DNA of 64,000 nucleotides from Alphaproteobacteria bacterium (lineage in GTDB: Bacteria > Pseudomonadota > Alphaproteobacteria > UBA7887), in NCBI GenBank assembly GCA_965216755.1, contig CBDCGL010000011.1, positions 3,626,963 to 3,690,962 of the forward strand, read 5' to 3'. The position numbers were made by a program, and so were the translations under genes. Below the pieces are notes generated by a model. It saw only the letters and a list, made by a program, of their open reading frames with translations, made no database searches and was not told where the DNA came from. Numbering within the stretch: the first letter of the stretch is position 1; each line of letters starts with the position of its first letter. Of the stretch, positions 47,453-53,603 are shown piece by piece.

Positions 47453-48640
47453 ATGAGGACCGGTACCTTGCTTTCCGCAGCCTCGGTCTTGGCGTTCAGC
47501 ATCGCGCTGAGCGGCACCGCCGCAGGTCAGACGCTCGACGACAACCAGCTCAATGTTGGCGCGTTGTTTGGGCAAGCAAATGGCAACGCAAATGATCGCA
47601 GCCGCGCAGACAACGACTTCATCGACGCCGACGTAACGCTGACCGACAACAATGCCGGGTTCGGCAACGCGTCGGGCGGCAGCACGGCCGACAATGACGG
47701 CATCGACAATAAGGGTGGCACGATCGACAACGATGGCTACGACATCGACGTCAAAGATGTCACCGTCAAGGCTTCCAACGTCGAAGACAGCAACAACAGC
47801 AACGCCCTGTATTGGTGGTACAACTCGCTCAACACCGTGAATGTCGATCACAGTATTCACGACAACATCGCGATGCTCAGCCGCACCGATCTCGAAGCCA
47901 TGGTGTCGGGCGTCAACATGTTCAACCTGAACGCCCATGGCGCGGCCACCGGCGGTGCCGGCCTCGCGTATGCTGGCGGCGAAGCCAATGCGAAAGCCAA
48001 GGGCAAGGTCAAAGCCAAAGCTGACGGCGACTCGACGGCGCGCAACAAAAACCGCACCGACGCCGACTCTGGCGGATTCGCGCTGGGCGCGGCCGGCGGC
48101 AACACGGGCGGCGACGCCACCAACACGGCCGGCAGCTCGACGGCCCATGGCGGCGGTGCACTCAACGCCACCGATGGTACGGCAGCCGGAATCTTCATCG
48201 GCTTTGCGGCGAACAAGACCGAATCCACGGACGGCAGCGGCGACGCGGCCGGCGCGTCGGGTGCGGGCGGCACGGCAGCCGGCGATGCCGGCGATGTCGG
48301 CGACACCTTGGGACTCGCGGTGGTCGATGCCGACGCCACGTCAGGTGCGGCCAAGGCCGACGCCAAGTCCGGCAATATCGGCAACATGGCAGCAGCCGGT
48401 AACACTTCCAGCGCGGACGCCAGCAACAACTCGGCAGCGACCATCGAAGGTGGCACGCAAACAACAACCCTGGATGTCAACTTCGCCACCGGCAGCATCT
48501 CCAGCATGATCAGTGATCTGCGCGGCATCAACCCGATCGTTCAGAACACTGGCTTTGCTTCCAACCAAAACGTCTCGATCAGCGTCAACGCGATGGTCGC
48601 CAGCGTCAACGGCGGCGGCACCATCGGTAGCGGCCGCTAA
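47453..48640 (+). CDS. secreted Gly/Ala/Asn/Asp/Thr-rich protein of unknown family (paralog A)
   Basis: AGGAG RBS, Sec signal peptide (…SIALSGTAAG), 395 aa, no Cys. Alignable end-to-end with the downstream gene. Confidence 0.8.
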   Translation: MRTGTLLSAASVLAFSIALSGTAAGQTLDDNQLNVGALFGQANGNANDRSRADNDFIDADVTLTDNNAGFGNASGGSTADNDGIDNKGGTIDNDGYDIDVKDVTVKASNVEDSNNSNALYWWYNSLNTVNVDHSIHDNIAMLSRTDLEAMVSGVNMFNLNAHGAATGGAGLAYAGGEANAKAKGKVKAKADGDSTARNKNRTDADSGGFALGAAGGNTGGDATNTAGSSTAHGGGALNATDGTAAGIFIGFAANKTESTDGSGDAAGASGAGGTAAGDAGDVGDTLGLAVVDADATSGAAKADAKSGNIGNMAAAGNTSSADASNNSAATIEGGTQTTTLDVNFATGSISSMISDLRGINPIVQNTGFASNQNVSISVNAMVASVNGGGTIGSGR

Positions 48641-48685: not shown

Positions 48686-49861
48686 ATGAGAAAACTCACC
48701 TTGTTGACCGCTGCGTCGGCCATGGCCCTGGGCTTGGGTCTTGCGCAGTCGGCGCAGGCCGTGGATGTGACCAACAACCAAGCCAATGTTGGTATCCTCG
48801 GCACCGCCAACAACAACGCCAACGATCGCAGCGTCACCGACAATGACGGTCTGGATCTGGATGTCAAAGCCGACAGCAACAATATCGGCTTCGGCAATGC
48901 CAGTGGCGAATCGACCGCAGACAACGACTTCGTCGACAACAAAGAAGGCACCATCGACAATGATGAGGTCGACGTCGACGTCACCGGCGTGGATATCACC
49001 CTGTCCAACAAAGAGCGCAGCGGCAACACCGCCGTCTGGGCGATGATGTGGGGCTCGGGCAACAGCGCGTCATATGACGGCAGCATCCACAACAACATCG
49101 CGCAGCTGAGCCACACCCAGCTGAGCGCTGCGGTGACCGAAATCCAGATGTTCGATATCGAAGCCGGTGGCTACGCCTTTGGTGGCCTCGGCGCCGCGGT
49201 TGCCGACGGCGAAGCCAAAGCCCGGGCCAAGGGCAAGGTCCGCGCTAAGGCCGATGGTGACTCGACGGCCAAGAACCGCAACAAAGCGGATGCTGACGCG
49301 TTTGGCGCCACGGCGGCGGCGGCTGGCCACAACGAAGGTGGCACGGTCGAAAACGAAGCCGGCAACTCCGCCGCCAATGGCGGCTTGGCCATTAACCTCA
49401 CCGATGGTGACGCGATCGCCTTGCTCGGTGCCGCGGCCAACTGGACCAAGTCCGAAGATGGCGGCAACGATGCCAAGGGCATGTCCGACAAGGGCGGCAG
49501 CGCCGAAGGTGCCGGCGGCGACGTCGGCGACACTGCCGCGGTTGCTTTGGTCGATGCCGACGCCAACTCTGGCGACGCCACCGCGACGGCGACGTCGGGT
49601 GACGTGGCCAACACGGCCGTTGGTGTCAACGAGTCGACGGCCACGGCGTCGAACGACACCGAAGCCACGCTTGGCGGCTCCAGCCAAGAAACCAAAGTGG
49701 CGTTCAACTTCACGACCGGCGGCCTCCTCGGGTCGGTCGGAAGCCTGCGCGGAATCAATCCGGTCATGCAAAATACCGGCTTCGCGCACAATCAGAACGT
49801 TGGCGTCAGCGTTAACGCGTTGGTCGGCAGCGTCAACGGCTCGGGCTCGATCCGGCCGTAG
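48686..49861 (+). CDS. secreted Gly/Ala/Asn/Asp/Thr-rich protein of unknown family (paralog B)
   Basis: AGGAGG RBS, signal peptide (…GLAQSAQA), 391 aa. Shares the NANDRS..DND, AKGKVxAKADGDSTA and LRGINPxxQNTGFAxNQNV blocks with paralog A. Confidence 0.8.
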   Translation: MRKLTLLTAASAMALGLGLAQSAQAVDVTNNQANVGILGTANNNANDRSVTDNDGLDLDVKADSNNIGFGNASGESTADNDFVDNKEGTIDNDEVDVDVTGVDITLSNKERSGNTAVWAMMWGSGNSASYDGSIHNNIAQLSHTQLSAAVTEIQMFDIEAGGYAFGGLGAAVADGEAKARAKGKVRAKADGDSTAKNRNKADADAFGATAAAAGHNEGGTVENEAGNSAANGGLAINLTDGDAIALLGAAANWTKSEDGGNDAKGMSDKGGSAEGAGGDVGDTAAVALVDADANSGDATATATSGDVANTAVGVNESTATASNDTEATLGGSSQETKVAFNFTTGGLLGSVGSLRGINPVMQNTGFAHNQNVGVSVNALVGSVNGSGSIRP

Positions 49862-49946: not shown

Positions 49947-50951
49947 CTAACGCGGTAACTCGATCGCGTAATCGGGCAGCGGCGCCGGCGCCTCGATCAA
50001 ACCTTGTTCGGCCAGGAACGCGGCGAAACGCTGGTAACGATTTTGATCCAAACTGCCCGGTCGCAACGCAAATCGCGGCAGCGTGTCGCGCCAGGCACGC
50101 CGGTTCAGCTCGTCATTGATGCTGTCACGATAGGCGACGAACAAGTCCCAAGACTCATCAGGATGATTGACCAAAAAATGGGCGGCGCGTTCCAGGGCGT
50201 CGACGAACCGGCCCAAGCGCGGCTGGTCGATCGCATTGCGTTGCGCGACGATGATCAGCTCGTCGTAAGCGGGCACGCCATGTTCCTCGACAAAGAAAGC
50301 ACGGCCTTGATGGCCCTCGATGGCCAGCTGGTTGAGTTCAAAATTGCGATAAGCACCGATGACCGCGTCAACCTGACCCGACAGTAACGCCGGGCTCAAC
50401 GCGAAATTCACGTTGATCAGTTCCACATCGGCCAGTGCCACCCCATGCTTGGCCAGCATGGTGCCCAAGAGCGCATCTTCGAAGCCGCCGACGGAGTAGC
50501 CAACCTTGCGCCCCGCCAAGTCGGCGATTTTCGTGATCGGCCCGTCGTCGAGCACCAGCAATGTGTTTAGTGGCGTCGCCACCAAGGTGGCCACGCGCAC
50601 CAAGGGCAGCCCCTCCGCGACGTGCAAATGCAATTGCGGCTGATAGCTGACGGCCAAATCCACTTGTCCGGCGGCCACCAATTTTGGCGGCAATGTCGGA
50701 TCGGCTGGTTCGCTCATGGCGACTTCAAGCCCGGCTTCGGCGAAATAACCCTTTTGCTCGGCAATGACCAAAGTGGCGTGATCGGGATTGAGAAACCAAT
50801 CCAACATCAGCGACAGCGGCTCGGCCGTGGCCTTGCTGGCGCCGCCGGCATTCAAGGCAACAAGGAAAACGAGCGTCAGCGCCCTTGCCACGACCGGTCG
50901 ACGAAGACCGCCAAGACTATGTCCAAAATTGAATTGTCGGGTTCTCGACAT
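49947..50951 (-). CDS. NMT1/THI5-like (ThiY-like) periplasmic substrate-binding protein
   Basis: Signal peptide; LMLDWFLNPDHATLVIAEQKGYFAEAGLEV...DLAVSYQP is typical of the NMT1/ThiY family. Preceded by a TPP riboswitch. Confidence 0.8.
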   Translation of the reverse strand: MSRTRQFNFGHSLGGLRRPVVARALTLVFLVALNAGGASKATAEPLSLMLDWFLNPDHATLVIAEQKGYFAEAGLEVAMSEPADPTLPPKLVAAGQVDLAVSYQPQLHLHVAEGLPLVRVATLVATPLNTLLVLDDGPITKIADLAGRKVGYSVGGFEDALLGTMLAKHGVALADVELINVNFALSPALLSGQVDAVIGAYRNFELNQLAIEGHQGRAFFVEEHGVPAYDELIIVAQRNAIDQPRLGRFVDALERAAHFLVNHPDESWDLFVAYRDSINDELNRRAWRDTLPRFALRPGSLDQNRYQRFAAFLAEQGLIEAPAPLPDYAIELPR

Positions 50952-51029
50952 TCGCGCCGCCTCCGCTGCAATGGGCGTGCGGGAAGGGGCGGTTCGGCCT
51001 CACGGCGCGCATGTGTGTGCGAACGGCAA

Positions 51030-51130
51030 TCGGTTCCGCTCCCTTCGCCGGCATGACCCGGATCAGGTTCAGAGGGTCACCGCCTGCACGGTATCTCAGC
51101 CCTTCAACAAGGCCCCCCTGGGATGACGGC
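51030..51130 (-). ncRNA. TPP (THI-box) riboswitch
   Basis: Minus strand reads GGGGGGCC..GGGCUGAGAUACC...ACCCUCUGAACCUGAUCCGGGUCAUGCCGGCGAAGGGAGC. This matches the conserved CUGAGA and ACCUGAUCnGGnUnAUnCCnGCGnAGGGA cores, about 80 nt upstream of the binding-protein ATG. Confidence 0.9.
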
Positions 51131-51176: not shown

Positions 51177-51464
51177 CTAGAGTGCGAACAGCAGAAACGC
51201 GCCGAGTGTCACCACATAAATAAAGCCGTAGACCATGACCTCTTCGCGATCCATGTGGCCATTGGTATCGCGGTCGATGGGCAATGTAGGCTGGCTTCGC
51301 GGCTGGCCCTGGGCAAGCGCGTTTTTGACCATGGCGACGGTCTCTTCCTCGCGTTGTGGCTCTCGTCGCTGCTTAACTTTGATCATCTCACTGGTCAAGC
51401 TCGCCGCTTCATGGCCCGCGGCCTCGGCGTGCGTATCGGTTTCGGTGATTGTTGTCGCGGTCAT
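51177..51464 (-). CDS. small tail-anchored membrane protein with a single EF-hand-like loop
   Basis: 95 aa with an acidic/charged N-terminal part. DRDTNGHMDREE fits the EF-hand loop positions 1,3,5,6,8,12, and the C-terminal TM segment is VMVYGFIYVVTLGAFLLFAL. It starts 15 nt after the RHH gene. Confidence 0.5.
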   Translation of the reverse strand: MTATTITETDTHAEAAGHEAASLTSEMIKVKQRREPQREEETVAMVKNALAQGQPRSQPTLPIDRDTNGHMDREEVMVYGFIYVVTLGAFLLFAL

Positions 51465-51478
51465 GAGTGACAACCCCA

Positions 51479-52051
51479 CTAATTGCGTTTGGATCGGGCG
51501 AGCGGCCGGATCCGACGGCCGTCCGTAGCCGACGTCGCGTCGTCTGCTTTGGGATGGAGGCACGCGCACGATTTTGCCGCGCCGTCATCGACGGCATGGC
51601 TGACATACGCATCAATGGCGTCGGTGAGGGCATCTTGGATGTGCAGGCGACGGTGTGCGGCGATCAGACGTAATTTGAAGTGACGCTGTGGGTCTAGCCG
51701 CACTGAAAGCCGCACCCGTCCGGTGCGGTCGCGCTTCAATTCCGCCTCGGCGGCAATCTCCACCGCGCGCGGCGATCGCTGTTTGGTGTTCGACCGGGTG
51801 CTGGGCACAGCGTCGGTTGCCAACCGATCCAAGTCAGGCGCGCTCAATTCGGCAACGGCAGGACGTGGCGGCGCCAGACGGAGCAATGCGTCCGAATCTT
51901 CAATGGCCGGCAATAAGGCCAAATGATCGGCGATGTCGCTGAGGTCGTCCCGATGGTCGACGTCGCGCGCGAGCGGCGCGTCGCCAAGTCGCGACGGTGC
52001 CGCCGCACCCTTGCGGGCCAAAAGGCGGCTGGTCAAGGGCGCCGACTTCAT
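51479..52051 (-). CDS. ParG-like partner protein: disordered N-terminus plus C-terminal ribbon-helix-helix-like domain
   Basis: The ATG overlaps the parA-like stop (ATGA). RVRLSVRLDPQRHFKLRLIAAHRRLHIQDALTDAIDAYV resembles an RHH/CopG fold. Confidence 0.55.
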   Translation of the reverse strand: MKSAPLTSRLLARKGAAAPSRLGDAPLARDVDHRDDLSDIADHLALLPAIEDSDALLRLAPPRPAVAELSAPDLDRLATDAVPSTRSNTKQRSPRAVEIAAEAELKRDRTGRVRLSVRLDPQRHFKLRLIAAHRRLHIQDALTDAIDAYVSHAVDDGAAKSCACLHPKADDATSATDGRRIRPLARSKRN

Positions 52052-52752
52052 ACAGCGGCCATCCGCGTCGGGCCGACAATGGCATCGCTGCCGGTGCCCG
52101 TGCGCGCCGAGGTAAACGCCGGTGGTGTCGCGGCGCGGGCGAGGCGCACCGCCAAATATTGCCACAGGTCATGGATCTCCTGCGCTGATTTGGAGCGTTC
52201 ATTGAGCTCCATCACGGTGCGACCGTCGATCATGCTGGCGGCGAAATCGGTCCTTTGGTGAATGGTTATCGGCGCCACGGTGCCATGCTGCGACAAGGCG
52301 ATTGCCGCCTCGGCCGTGATCCGGGCCCGTGGCGCGGCGCCGTTGATGACAAATGTCAGGGGTTTGCCCAGCCGTTCGACCAATTCGACCGTCGCGCCGG
52401 CGGCGCGCAAGTCATGTGGGCTCGGTCGTGTCGGAATTGCCACCAAGTTGGCCAAGCGCACGACATGTTCGATGGTTGCGGTGTTGGCTGGTGGTGTGTC
52501 GAAGATCAACAATTTGATGCCACGTGCGCGCATGGCCTGCATGTCTTCCGCCAACCGCGCGACAAATGTATGTGCGAAGACGGGCGTGTCGGCCGCGCGT
52601 TCGTTCCACCAGTCAGCCAAACTGCCTTGGGGGTCCGTATCGATCATCGCAACCGGGCCGTGGCCGGCGCGTTCGGCTTGCACGGCCATATGGCCGGCCA
52701 AGGTGGTCTTTCCGGAACCGCCTTTTTGCGATGTAAAAGCCAATACTTGCAT
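52048..52752 (-). CDS. ParA/MinD-family P-loop ATPase (small type Ib-like ParA)
   Basis: Deviant Walker A SQKGGSGKTT, IDTDPQGS, and LLIFDTPP Walker B. Confidence 0.85.
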   Translation of the reverse strand: MQVLAFTSQKGGSGKTTLAGHMAVQAERAGHGPVAMIDTDPQGSLADWWNERAADTPVFAHTFVARLAEDMQAMRARGIKLLIFDTPPANTATIEHVVRLANLVAIPTRPSPHDLRAAGATVELVERLGKPLTFVINGAAPRARITAEAAIALSQHGTVAPITIHQRTDFAASMIDGRTVMELNERSKSAQEIHDLWQYLAVRLARAATPPAFTSARTGTGSDAIVGPTRMAAV

Positions 52753-53006
52753 GTGCCATCCTTCCGCGCATCAATGGGTCTTGCCAGTCCGGCGCGTTGA
52801 TGTTCGCGTGGCAAATCACGCTGGCGCCCGAACCGTGGCCATTGTTCGGCGAGAGATGGTCGAAAAAACATACCGCTCGTCACATATGCGCCAAATAATG
52901 CCGCGCCATGGCACCGTGCGGCGTGACACCCGCAATGCTGGCGTCGTGGCCCCGCCAAATGCACGTAGTGGGATACCTCGCGGGACCGTGACGATGTTCA
53001 AATTGC

Positions 53007-53077: not shown

Positions 53078-53416
53078 TCAGGCGGCCTCCTCCGCCTTGC
53101 CCCTATAGGCTAACGCGCAATGTTCGCGACAATATGGCCGCCCCTGTTGCCGGGGTTCGGCACAGAACCGAAAGCCGGGTTCGCCCGGATGACCAATCGG
53201 CCAACGACACATACGTTCGGTCAAATTCAATCCGCTGATCCGTTCCGCCGCGTCTGAGGTACGCGGCTTGCCCCGATTTGATAGGCCCAACCGATGAGCC
53301 TTGCCGATAACGGCGTTGCGGCTGATGTTGCCGAGGCGCTCCCCTATTTTTCGCGCACTCAAGCCCTCAGCCCAAAGGGTCTTCAAGGTATTAATGGCCT
53401 CCTCGGTCCATTCCAT
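53078..53416 (-). CDS. gcrA: GcrA-family cell-cycle regulator (short form)
   Basis: MEWTEEAINTLKTLWAEGLSARKIGERLGNISRNAVIGKAHRLGL and a C-terminal CRWPIGHPGEPGFRFC...GRPYCREHCALAY. Confidence 0.85.
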   Translation of the reverse strand: MEWTEEAINTLKTLWAEGLSARKIGERLGNISRNAVIGKAHRLGLSNRGKPRTSDAAERISGLNLTERMCRWPIGHPGEPGFRFCAEPRQQGRPYCREHCALAYRGKAEEAA

Positions 53417-53603
53417 GATGTGTACTTCCCTGTTATCCCTATTGGCTGCCTGCACAGATTTTGTAGGTGAATTTATCGAAGCCTACAAGATGTGGTCTTT
53501 TGGGTCGCGCAACTTCTCACGCGCATCGCTGCTTGACGAGTGAGCCACGACCGTTCGAATATTATCCGGAAAGCTGCCGGGCGAACAACCGCGAGCGACA
53601 AAT

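Follow-up and report, generated by a model that had tools for sequence, protein, structure and literature searches.

A chromosomal ParA and ribbon-helix-helix partner pair related to type Ib plasmid partition cassettes, with a genome-specific third open reading frame, in an alphaproteobacterium

Introduction

Type Ib cassettes, in which a ParA-family ATPase is paired with a ribbon-helix-helix (RHH) protein, are textbook plasmid-stability modules. In ParF/ParG of TP228 and in delta/omega of pSM19035, a small ParA devoid of helix-turn-helix (HTH) is followed downstream by an RHH protein that forms dimers and whose flexible N-terminal tail contains Arg or Lys, and an RHH fold is also present in VirC2. 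In McdA/McdB, PpfA/TlpT, ParC/ParP and PomXYZ, a nucleoid-bound ParA-type ATPase works with partners bearing a short, basic activating peptide at the N-terminus. Here we describe three open reading frames (ORFs) in a stretch of 64,000 nucleotides, hereafter the window, from an alphaproteobacterium of the lineage UBA7887 (assembly GCA_965216755.1, contig CBDCGL010000011.1, positions 3,626,963 to 3,690,962). Arranged head to tail on the minus strand, they encode a ParA-family ATPase of 234 amino acids (52048–52752), a partner or adaptor protein of 190 amino acids (51479–52051) and a third protein of 95 amino acids (51177–51464; P0060 in the source annotation). An earlier sequence-only reading, whose coordinates for the three ORFs were confirmed, had proposed that they form a module for positioning a non-DNA cargo, with the last protein as a calcium-binding membrane component.

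The reading that we favour, and hold to be moderately probable, is that the first two genes constitute a domesticated type Ib pair, chromosomally fixed and with DNA as its default cargo, whereas the third ORF is a non-conserved addition. Related loci used for comparison are labelled L001 and so forth.

Results

The ATPase and its partner

The ATPase belongs to the small type Ib form, lacking an N-terminal HTH, and contains the complete deviant Walker A motif that had been read from its sequence (KGGSGKT, residues 10–16, within SQKGGSGKTT). It matched Pfam CbiA (1.7e-11) and, over the full model, the NCBIfam family ParA_partition (NF041546, E=1.4e-46). Its nearest solved structures were TP228 ParA (5u1g) and ParF (4dzz), both with E values of ~2.5e-15 over residues 1–188 (2.7e-15 for 4dzz in the PDB sequence search).

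The ATG of the partner gene (52049–52051) overlaps the TGA of the ATPase gene (52048–52050), producing the ATGA arrangement of translational coupling (52048–52051) that had been noted previously. In the partner itself, a peptide at the N-terminus is followed by a disordered linker, an RHH domain and a CxC motif. The peptide, APLTSRLLARKGAAAP (residues 4–19; 51995–52042, minus strand), contains residues L6, T7, L10, L11, A12, R13, K14, G15, A16, A17 and P19, all invariant in the partner alignment A1, and was the top match in the window (E=3.7e-7) of a hidden Markov model (HMM) of the peptide built without window sequences. Its likeness to the N-terminal tails of ParG and ParB makes it a putative activator of the ParA ATPase. 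All partner homologues found among 5.8 billion proteins were 165–256 amino acids long and shared two islands, the first with the pattern (A)SLTxSLLARKGAAxP, which in the window takes the form SAPLTSRLLARKGAAAP, and the second, near the C-terminus, with the pattern GRVRLSVRLDPxRH..L+...A......Q....A.D.Y. Between them extends a disordered linker of ~90 residues, rich in Pro, Ala and acidic residues and unalignable across homologues; in AlphaFold2 (AF2) models the predicted local distance difference test score (pLDDT) stayed below 50 for residues 17–103.

The C-terminal island corresponds to a predicted RHH domain (residues ~111–152, GRVRLSVRLDPQRHFKLRLIAAHRRLHIQDALTDAIDAYVSH; 51596–51721, minus strand). 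A profile of the C-terminal region (A2, 23 sequences) searched against the PDB retrieved ParG (1p94, E=2e-4) as the best match, followed by omega (2bnw, 1.2e-3) and then by RHH proteins of the CopG family, so that the assignment of a ParG/CopG-like RHH to the partner C-terminus proved correct at profile level. The Pfam Antitox_RHH match was weak (0.027), and the AF2 monomer, with an overall pLDDT of 54.6, was too poor for a fold search. Just after the RHH lies a C-A-C motif (C162–C164; 51560–51568, minus strand). C(A/P/I)C occurs at the same place in L013, L014, L018, L020, L028, L065, L089 and L091, across several orders, and is absent in the plasmid partners examined; a metal-related or redox role might be asked of it. 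As a separate observation, the otherwise disordered linkers of Sphingomonadales partners (L025, L039, L063) include a conserved DD(L/C)GWND(M/W)G motif, which may be a docking site for another protein, and residues 35–44 of the window partner (DDLSDIADHL) are loosely similar to it.

Plasmid relatives and the chromosomal clade

A tblastn search of the window ParA against 72,556 plasmids matched 2549 records. Four plasmid ParAs were 62–66% identical to it, those of Comamonas resistens pZM22-2, a Methylomonas plasmid, a Deefgea piscis plasmid and an uncultured plasmid, while alphaproteobacterial plasmid ParAs were 52–58% identical. Gene order was examined in three records, namely the Comamonas and Deefgea plasmids and a Xanthomonas citri plasmid whose ParA is 55% identical. 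In each of them ParA is followed by a hypothetical protein of 80–114 amino acids, and a replication initiator is encoded next or close by. The Comamonas partner reads MSKT(K)ASSLSAGLIAKKGQAVPA ... YKALTVKLNRARYEKLK and that of Deefgea MSKTASLTSGLVAKKGQAAPA ... YKALTVKLDRERYEALK, whereas the Xanthomonas plasmid partner follows this layout of peptide and RHH with greater divergence; ASLTSGLVAKKGQAAPA exemplifies a plasmid partner peptide with the motif of the window. Since the plasmid partners carry the same peptide and the same RHH, the window pair is, as judged from sequence, a homologue of the ordinary type Ib partition cassettes of plasmids.

Most relatives of the pair are chromosomal. The ATPase was detected in at least 550 species genomes, with more than 7900 proteins at E<1e-40, and shared 62–78% identity with thousands of alphaproteobacterial chromosomal proteins. 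The best matches listed (70–78%) came from Kiloniellales, Dongiaceae and other Rhodospirillales-like metagenome-assembled genomes; ParAs of Sphingomonadales (Novosphingobium, Sphingomonas, Erythrobacter, Porphyrobacter, Allosphingosinicella and Pacificimonas) were 62–71% identical and that of Kordiimonas 67%. Many of these matches lie on contigs of 0.1–5 Mb, and some have housekeeping surroundings, with mutS, malic enzyme and sucAB around L001, L002 and L004, and rpoA, rplQ or rluD-like genes elsewhere. In a neighbour-joining tree of the 80 best matches and seven plasmid sequences, the chromosomal ParAs formed one group, with the plasmid ParAs, two of them alphaproteobacterial, outside it. Sphingomonadales constituted a single taxonomy-consistent branch with genus-level structure, and the window ParA stood among Rhodospirillales-like sequences, beside L010 and L087. 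Because the plasmid ParAs fall outside and the Sphingomonadales branch follows taxonomy, the chromosomal clade is apparently a vertically inherited, resident module. No description of this clade was found by full-text searching of the literature, the coverage of which is incomplete.

A locus scan with the fast-evolving partner as query found nothing, and ParA was used as query instead. Of 98 loci, 86 have an ORF headed by the N-terminal peptide, as detected with the peptide HMM, directly after ParA, and in 76 of the 86 the RHH is encoded as well. The remainder includes several other architectures. The peptide, in the form ASLTSSLLARKGEAEP, heads a bitopic protein of 500–640 amino acids without RHH that ends in a SPOR domain in L022 and L060 (Pfam 3.6e-12); it precedes a small transmembrane (TM) protein, again without RHH, in L021 and L023, and a different helical domain in L019 and L026.

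Two genes, one PAS_5-like and one for a TPR-SPOR protein, occur singly or together downstream of the ParA and partner genes of the relatives. The former, found in 21 Rhodospirillales-type loci as the gene after the partner (8653–9288 in L002, 7173–7904 in L008, 8111–8953 in L089, 8200–9090 in L091, and 17 more loci), encodes a protein of 190–300 amino acids with a weak match to PAS_5 (PF07310). The N-terminal region of this protein contains, after an acidic stretch, a conserved motif of its own, (A/G)SL(x)G(I/V)x(I/V)RR, which was not detected by the partner-peptide HMM and may be a second ParA-contact peptide. The TPR-SPOR gene encodes a lipoprotein of ~420–540 amino acids (7394–8767 in L039, 7447–8793 in L025, 7330–8712 in L063, and 58 more loci) and lies directly downstream on the same strand in all 61 loci that have it, which comprise all sampled Sphingomonadales with enough sequence together with the Kiloniellales loci L008 and L009. 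The window, which has neither of these two genes, is a reduced member of the chromosomal clade. As a side observation, a second ParA-like gene of VirC1 type (220 amino acids) is present in L001, L002 and L004 (6244–6976) and in L005 (3753–4415), just upstream of the operon formed by ParA, partner and PAS_5-like gene, the whole unit being placed between the malic enzyme gene and sucAB.

Upstream DNA

A region of ~325 nucleotides separates the ATPase gene from the GcrA-like gene upstream. It probably contains a promoter region proper to the ATPase gene, since the unit is bounded on this side by the GcrA-like gene and by a hairpin with a T-run (GGGCCGG...CCGGCCC) 3' of it, which was read by eye and was not reported by the terminator scan. 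The region holds a 22-bp palindrome, CCGAAC-N10-GTTCGG (52828–52849), 76–97 nucleotides upstream of the ParA ATG. The window contains no other perfect copy, and the half-sites are not enriched. L004 and L005 have TCCGAACTTGTTCGGA (TCCGAAC-TT-GTTCGGA) at −68, a similar distance from ParA. Considered as centromere repeats, GTGGCCATTG and CCGAAC-N10-GTTCGG showed no local enrichment beyond single copies. The palindrome therefore looks like a candidate operator for the RHH protein and not like a centromere array, in agreement with the earlier statement that no parS-like repeats surround these genes; the repeat search likewise gave no array.

A different element characterizes many of the relatives. 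Of 87 chromosomal loci, 61 match the CtrA-box pattern TTAA-N7-TTA[AG] in the 300 bp upstream of ParA, whereas none of 309 control windows of equal size drawn from the same related loci does, these counts being consensus matches; the exact form TTAA-N7-TTAA was found in none of seven plasmid loci. The motif appears in at least two separate branches, as TTAAC-N6-TTAAC at about −150 to −190 in the L001 group, L009, L011 and L089, and as TTAAC(C/T)CTAAATTAGG at −72 to −100 in Sphingomonadales; examples are TTAACCGTGAATTAAC at −162 in L004 and TTAACTCTAAATTAGG at −76 in L068. Such matches point to control of the chromosomal clade by the cell cycle or the CtrA regulon.

The third open reading frame

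The third ORF is called as a gene by the source annotation, on a contig of 4.85 Mb, and its GC content by codon position (0.625/0.417/0.698) is gene-like, as in neighbouring genes. It starts 14 nucleotides after the TAG of the partner, so that the close linkage described earlier stands, with a distance one nucleotide shorter than the 15 reported. The predicted protein has an acidic N-terminus, a long helix (residues 12–51), a Pro-rich coil, a DxDxNG loop and a C-terminal TM helix. In the five runs that hold the locus, it lies on metagenomic DNA contigs with a flat depth of 5–10x, and no strain variants occur in this ORF.

The TM helix placed at the extreme C-terminus by the sequence-only reading was corroborated (residues 76–95, VMVYGFIYVVTLGAFLLFAL; 51180–51239, minus strand). 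Its 19-residue Kyte-Doolittle mean is 2.2, and AF2 models a helix over residues 73–94 with pLDDT 91–95. With this single TM segment in the last ~30 residues, no signal peptide and an acidic, helical N-terminus, the protein has the features of a predicted tail-anchored protein.

The loop preceding the anchor had been described as a canonical single EF-hand. It spans D64–E75 (D64-RDTNGHMDRE-E75, DRDTNGHMDREE; 51240–51275, minus strand) and matches PROSITE PS00018, the match DRDTNGHMDREEV being the sole one in the six-frame translation of the window (128 k residues). As this pattern occurs once in those 128 k residues, and once per 2.08 M six-frame residues in the related loci, the match in the third ORF is not one that chance would commonly produce. 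The motif thus stands, but no Pfam EF-hand model, nor any other Pfam family, matched the ORF at E up to 10, there is no second EF-hand, and an entering helix is not supported: AF2 models residues 52–72 as coil, albeit with a pLDDT of only ~56–59, and the stretch ahead of the loop is rich in Pro (Pro at −2 and −5). The exiting helix of the loop is the start of the TM helix itself. A DxDxNG-type loop directly in front of a tail anchor is the most apt description of the segment, and the idea of a calcium-binding tail anchor is one taken from motifs only.

No homologue of the third ORF was found by tblastn in 86 related loci, by a word-indexed search of 5.8e9 proteins, which returned the ORF itself alone, or by a full HMMER search of 1.84e9 representatives, which returned the ORF and one motif-level match. 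The latter (P0181) was rejected, being a repeated DxDxNG loop in an unrelated repeat protein of 1197 amino acids. The third ORF is a lineage-specific orphan of one genome, and a tblastn comparison of 13 window proteins with the 86 related loci recovered ParA and the partner only, so that a conserved trio was not borne out.

Residues 20–26 of the orphan, AASLTSE, followed by MIKVKQRR (51387–51407, minus strand), resemble the first half of the partner peptide. With the partner-peptide HMM the ORF ranks second in the window (E=0.64 window-wide); taken as a single pre-chosen target the match has p ~5e-4, a value that belongs to a likeness noticed post hoc, and the background in the related loci is at a similar rate (~7 matches of at least 5.5 bits per 8915 segments). 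The match covers seven residues and lacks the invariant R-K-G, and an HMM of the peptide of the PAS_5-like family gave no match to the ORF. The likeness to a ParA-contact peptide is suggestive only. A possible origin of the ORF as a duplicate of the 5' end of the partner gene was discarded, blastn showing no duplication.

Genomic surroundings

Immediately upstream of the unit lies a gene for a short GcrA-like protein of 125 amino acids (53078–53455, minus strand), which matched Pfam GcrA (4.2e-37), reached 105 bits against a cutoff of 280 in NCBIfam, and matched phage protein families (PHROGs) as well. None of the 86 related loci has such a gene beside ParA. On the downstream side, a thiamine pyrophosphate (TPP) riboswitch (51023–51129, minus strand; Rfam RF00059, 68.8 bits) starts 48 nucleotides past the stop codon of the third ORF and leads an NMT1/THI5-like gene (49947–50951). 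A spike of 100–600x in the depth of metagenome contigs at 51040–51077 was considered as a sign of a repeat element and rejected, as it corresponds to the conserved core of the riboswitch.

The neighbours between 44.0 and 63.0 kb have ordinary metabolic functions. No rep, integrase, conjugation or relaxase genes were found among the ORFs scanned in this interval, nor were carboxysome, chemoreceptor or polyhydroxyalkanoate (PHA) cargo genes adjacent to the unit. The tRNA search of the window was negative, and GC content is flat at ~0.60–0.65, a native composition without anomaly. On a 4.85-Mb contig, the view that no plasmid or integrative and conjugative element remnant is visible here was borne out. 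As a further observation, two tandem paralogous secreted proteins of 395 and 391 amino acids, 54% identical (47453–48640 and 48686–49861, plus strand), have signal peptides, are rich in D, N, G and A, and belong to no Pfam or NCBIfam family; the AT skew of their region is strong (+0.2 to +0.3).

Discussion

Our results favour the view of the window pair as a domesticated type Ib system residing on the chromosome, for which, reasoning by homology with described systems, we infer the following mode of action. ATP-bound ParA dimers would coat the nucleoid, while the partner, dimerized through its RHH, would bind specific DNA, probably including at least the palindrome of its own promoter and perhaps sites elsewhere on the chromosome. 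The LLARKG peptide at the flexible N-terminus of the partner would contact ParA and trigger ATP hydrolysis, and the resulting ParA gradient would move or space whatever the partner holds. The RHH of the adaptor points to DNA, and not an organelle, as the default cargo. Together with the lack of adjacent carboxysome, chemoreceptor or PHA genes and the homology of the pair to a type Ib plasmid cassette, this speaks against the non-DNA cargo-positioning module initially proposed. A task of the clade in the host cell cycle, or between nucleoid and envelope, is more likely than plasmid maintenance, since its members are operonic with PAS_5-like and/or TPR-SPOR genes and often lie behind a CtrA-box-like motif; a link with division or the envelope may exist as well. 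The suggestion of a role beyond plasmid upkeep is likewise plausible, because relatives graft the adaptor peptide onto membrane and SPOR proteins that do not bind DNA, although the notion of a new kind of adaptor system did not stand. The third ORF occupies in the window the slot of the PAS_5-like gene and may be a membrane client of ParA, given that relatives attach the peptide to membrane proteins.

Several results weigh against this interpretation. The window ParA scores 158.6 bits, under the 180-bit trusted cutoff of NCBIfam ParA_partition, and in the AF2 monomer of the partner the RHH region has a pLDDT of 63–84 with its helices merged, so that the fold is not confirmed structurally. There is no centromere-like repeat array near the window genes, where one palindrome stands alone. 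PAS_5-like and TPR-SPOR homologues are absent anywhere in the window according to tblastn, and the CtrA-like box is missing there, even with one mismatch, as well as in the nearest relatives L010, L087, L013 and L020. Where the box does occur, the loci counted are not phylogenetically independent, and the neighbour-joining tree is one without support values, with query-biased sampling. Finally, literature searching retrieved no biochemical or localisation data for any member of the clade.

Other explanations compete with the domesticated pair, either for the whole unit or for the third ORF. The pair could be a stranded remnant of an integrated plasmid or mobile element, kept by autoregulation or drift and without host function in this genome. 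The 62–66% identity of its ParA to those of bona fide plasmids with the same partner peptide and RHH would fit such an origin, as would the lack in the window of the accessory genes and CtrA-like box of the relatives and the presence, on either side of the pair, of an orphan ORF and a short GcrA-like paralogue with matches to phage families. We consider it improbable, however: no rep, integrase or relaxase genes were found among the ORFs scanned between 44.0 and 63.0 kb, the window has no tRNA gene or composition break, both ORFs are intact with their conserved motifs, the ParA is nearer to chromosomal copies of other orders (67–78%) than to any plasmid ParA, including those of alphaproteobacterial plasmids (52–58%), and the partner has the long form of 190 amino acids typical of chromosomal copies rather than the plasmid form of 80–115. 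Somewhat more weight must be given to the possibility, which we nonetheless doubt, that the third ORF has no function as a gene, being either an ORF that arose by chance or an eroded stub left from the 5' end of an ancestral PAS_5-like gene. It has no homologue in the searched sets, it sits in the exact slot of the PAS_5-like gene of the relatives, its ribosome-binding site is weak (GGGG at −13 to −10), and the riboswitch begins only 48 nucleotides past its stop codon. Its codon-position GC is nonetheless that of window genes, the source annotation calls it, and a rare EF-type loop and a clean terminal TM helix are unlikely to coincide in noise. As for the stub in particular, tblastn found no trace of PAS_5-like sequence in any frame of the window and, as stated above, the peptide HMM of that family did not match, for which reasons this origin was rejected.

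The proposal that all three genes form one non-DNA cargo-positioning module, with an RHH adaptor and a calcium-binding tail-anchored protein providing calcium-responsive tethering, also seems to us unlikely. The statistically unusual EF-type loop, the clear TM tail, the position of the third ORF 14 nucleotides after the partner with gene-like codon composition, the resemblance of AASLTSE to the ParA-contact peptide (p ~5e-4) and the fusion of that peptide to membrane proteins in L021, L023, L022 and L060 all speak for it. EF-hands, however, normally pair, and a lone EF loop is unusual; this one has neither an EF-hand HMM match nor a modelled entering helix, AASLTSE is a match of seven residues without R-K-G, the ORF is an orphan in the searched sets, and there are no cargo genes nearby. 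A broader speculation, to which we attach a low probability, is that the clade represents an undescribed, vertically inherited positioning system, CtrA-regulated in many lineages, in which one peptide is used on RHH, TM-SPOR, small TM and perhaps PAS_5-like proteins so as to link the envelope or the division site with the nucleoid or with a site on the chromosome. The RHH module would then sit on DNA and the bitopic TM-SPOR proteins at septal peptidoglycan, and the membrane-side client in this genome would be the tail-anchored protein with its EF-type loop, which would render the tether sensitive to calcium.

Under the domesticated-pair reading, the kinds of protein involved are known, a ParF-like ATPase and a ParG-like RHH protein. 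Novelty apparently lies in their residence on the chromosome, in the long linker and the CxC motif of the partner, in the recurrence of the peptide on TM and SPOR proteins, in the operons shared with SPOR and PAS_5-like genes, and in the CtrA-type box. A chromosome-resident copy across whole alphaproteobacterial orders would, if this holds, clearly exemplify the recruitment of a partition system to a task of the host, possibly terminus or nucleoid handling at division, and the system would be directly testable in culturable Novosphingobium or Sphingomonas. The lesson of this window is narrower, that of a reduced clade member accompanied by a genome-specific orphan third gene of putative role.

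Comparison with known systems

The window pair can be set against several known systems. With McdA/McdB, PpfA/TlpT, ParC/ParP and PomXYZ the clade shares the grafting of a peptide onto different cargo-side domains, here RHH, TM and TM-SPOR; unlike in those systems, the window adaptor is an RHH protein and no organelle or receptor genes are adjacent. No sequence relationship to them was found, and the likeness is one of general logic. As regards VirC1/VirC2 of Agrobacterium Ti plasmids, the window ParA matches Pfam VirC1 over its full length above the cutoff (32 bits versus 24), yet its NCBIfam VirC1 score is far below threshold (33.7 versus 313) and the T-DNA border, relaxase or type IV secretion context of that system is missing from the window.

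ParF/ParG and delta/omega share with the window pair the small HTH-less ParA and the downstream RHH protein, in the window predicted at profile level, with a flexible basic N-terminal tail, and they provide the best PDB sequence matches (ParF 4dzz, ParG 1p94 and omega 2bnw, at the E values given above). The window pair differs from them in its chromosomal location, where neither a replicon nor iterated centromere repeats were seen. Of the features that define type Ib, it presents the small ParA and, at profile level, the adjacent RHH protein, whereas centromere repeats, plasmid residence and a ParA_partition score above the cutoff are lacking. ParG has 76 amino acids, compared with 190 in the window partner, with its ~90-residue disordered linker and CxC motif.

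The nearest mobile relatives are the uncharacterised plasmid cassettes of Comamonas pZM22-2, Deefgea piscis and Methylomonas, whose ParAs are 62–66% identical to that of the window and whose partners have an A-S-L-T/S-x-G-L-V/I-A-K/R-K-G-x-A-x-P peptide followed by an RHH. These cassettes lie beside rep genes, encode partners of 80–115 amino acids with a short linker and no CxC, and branch outside the chromosomal clade. The window pair, in contrast to ParF/ParG, has relatives that are operonic with PAS_5-like and TPR-SPOR genes.

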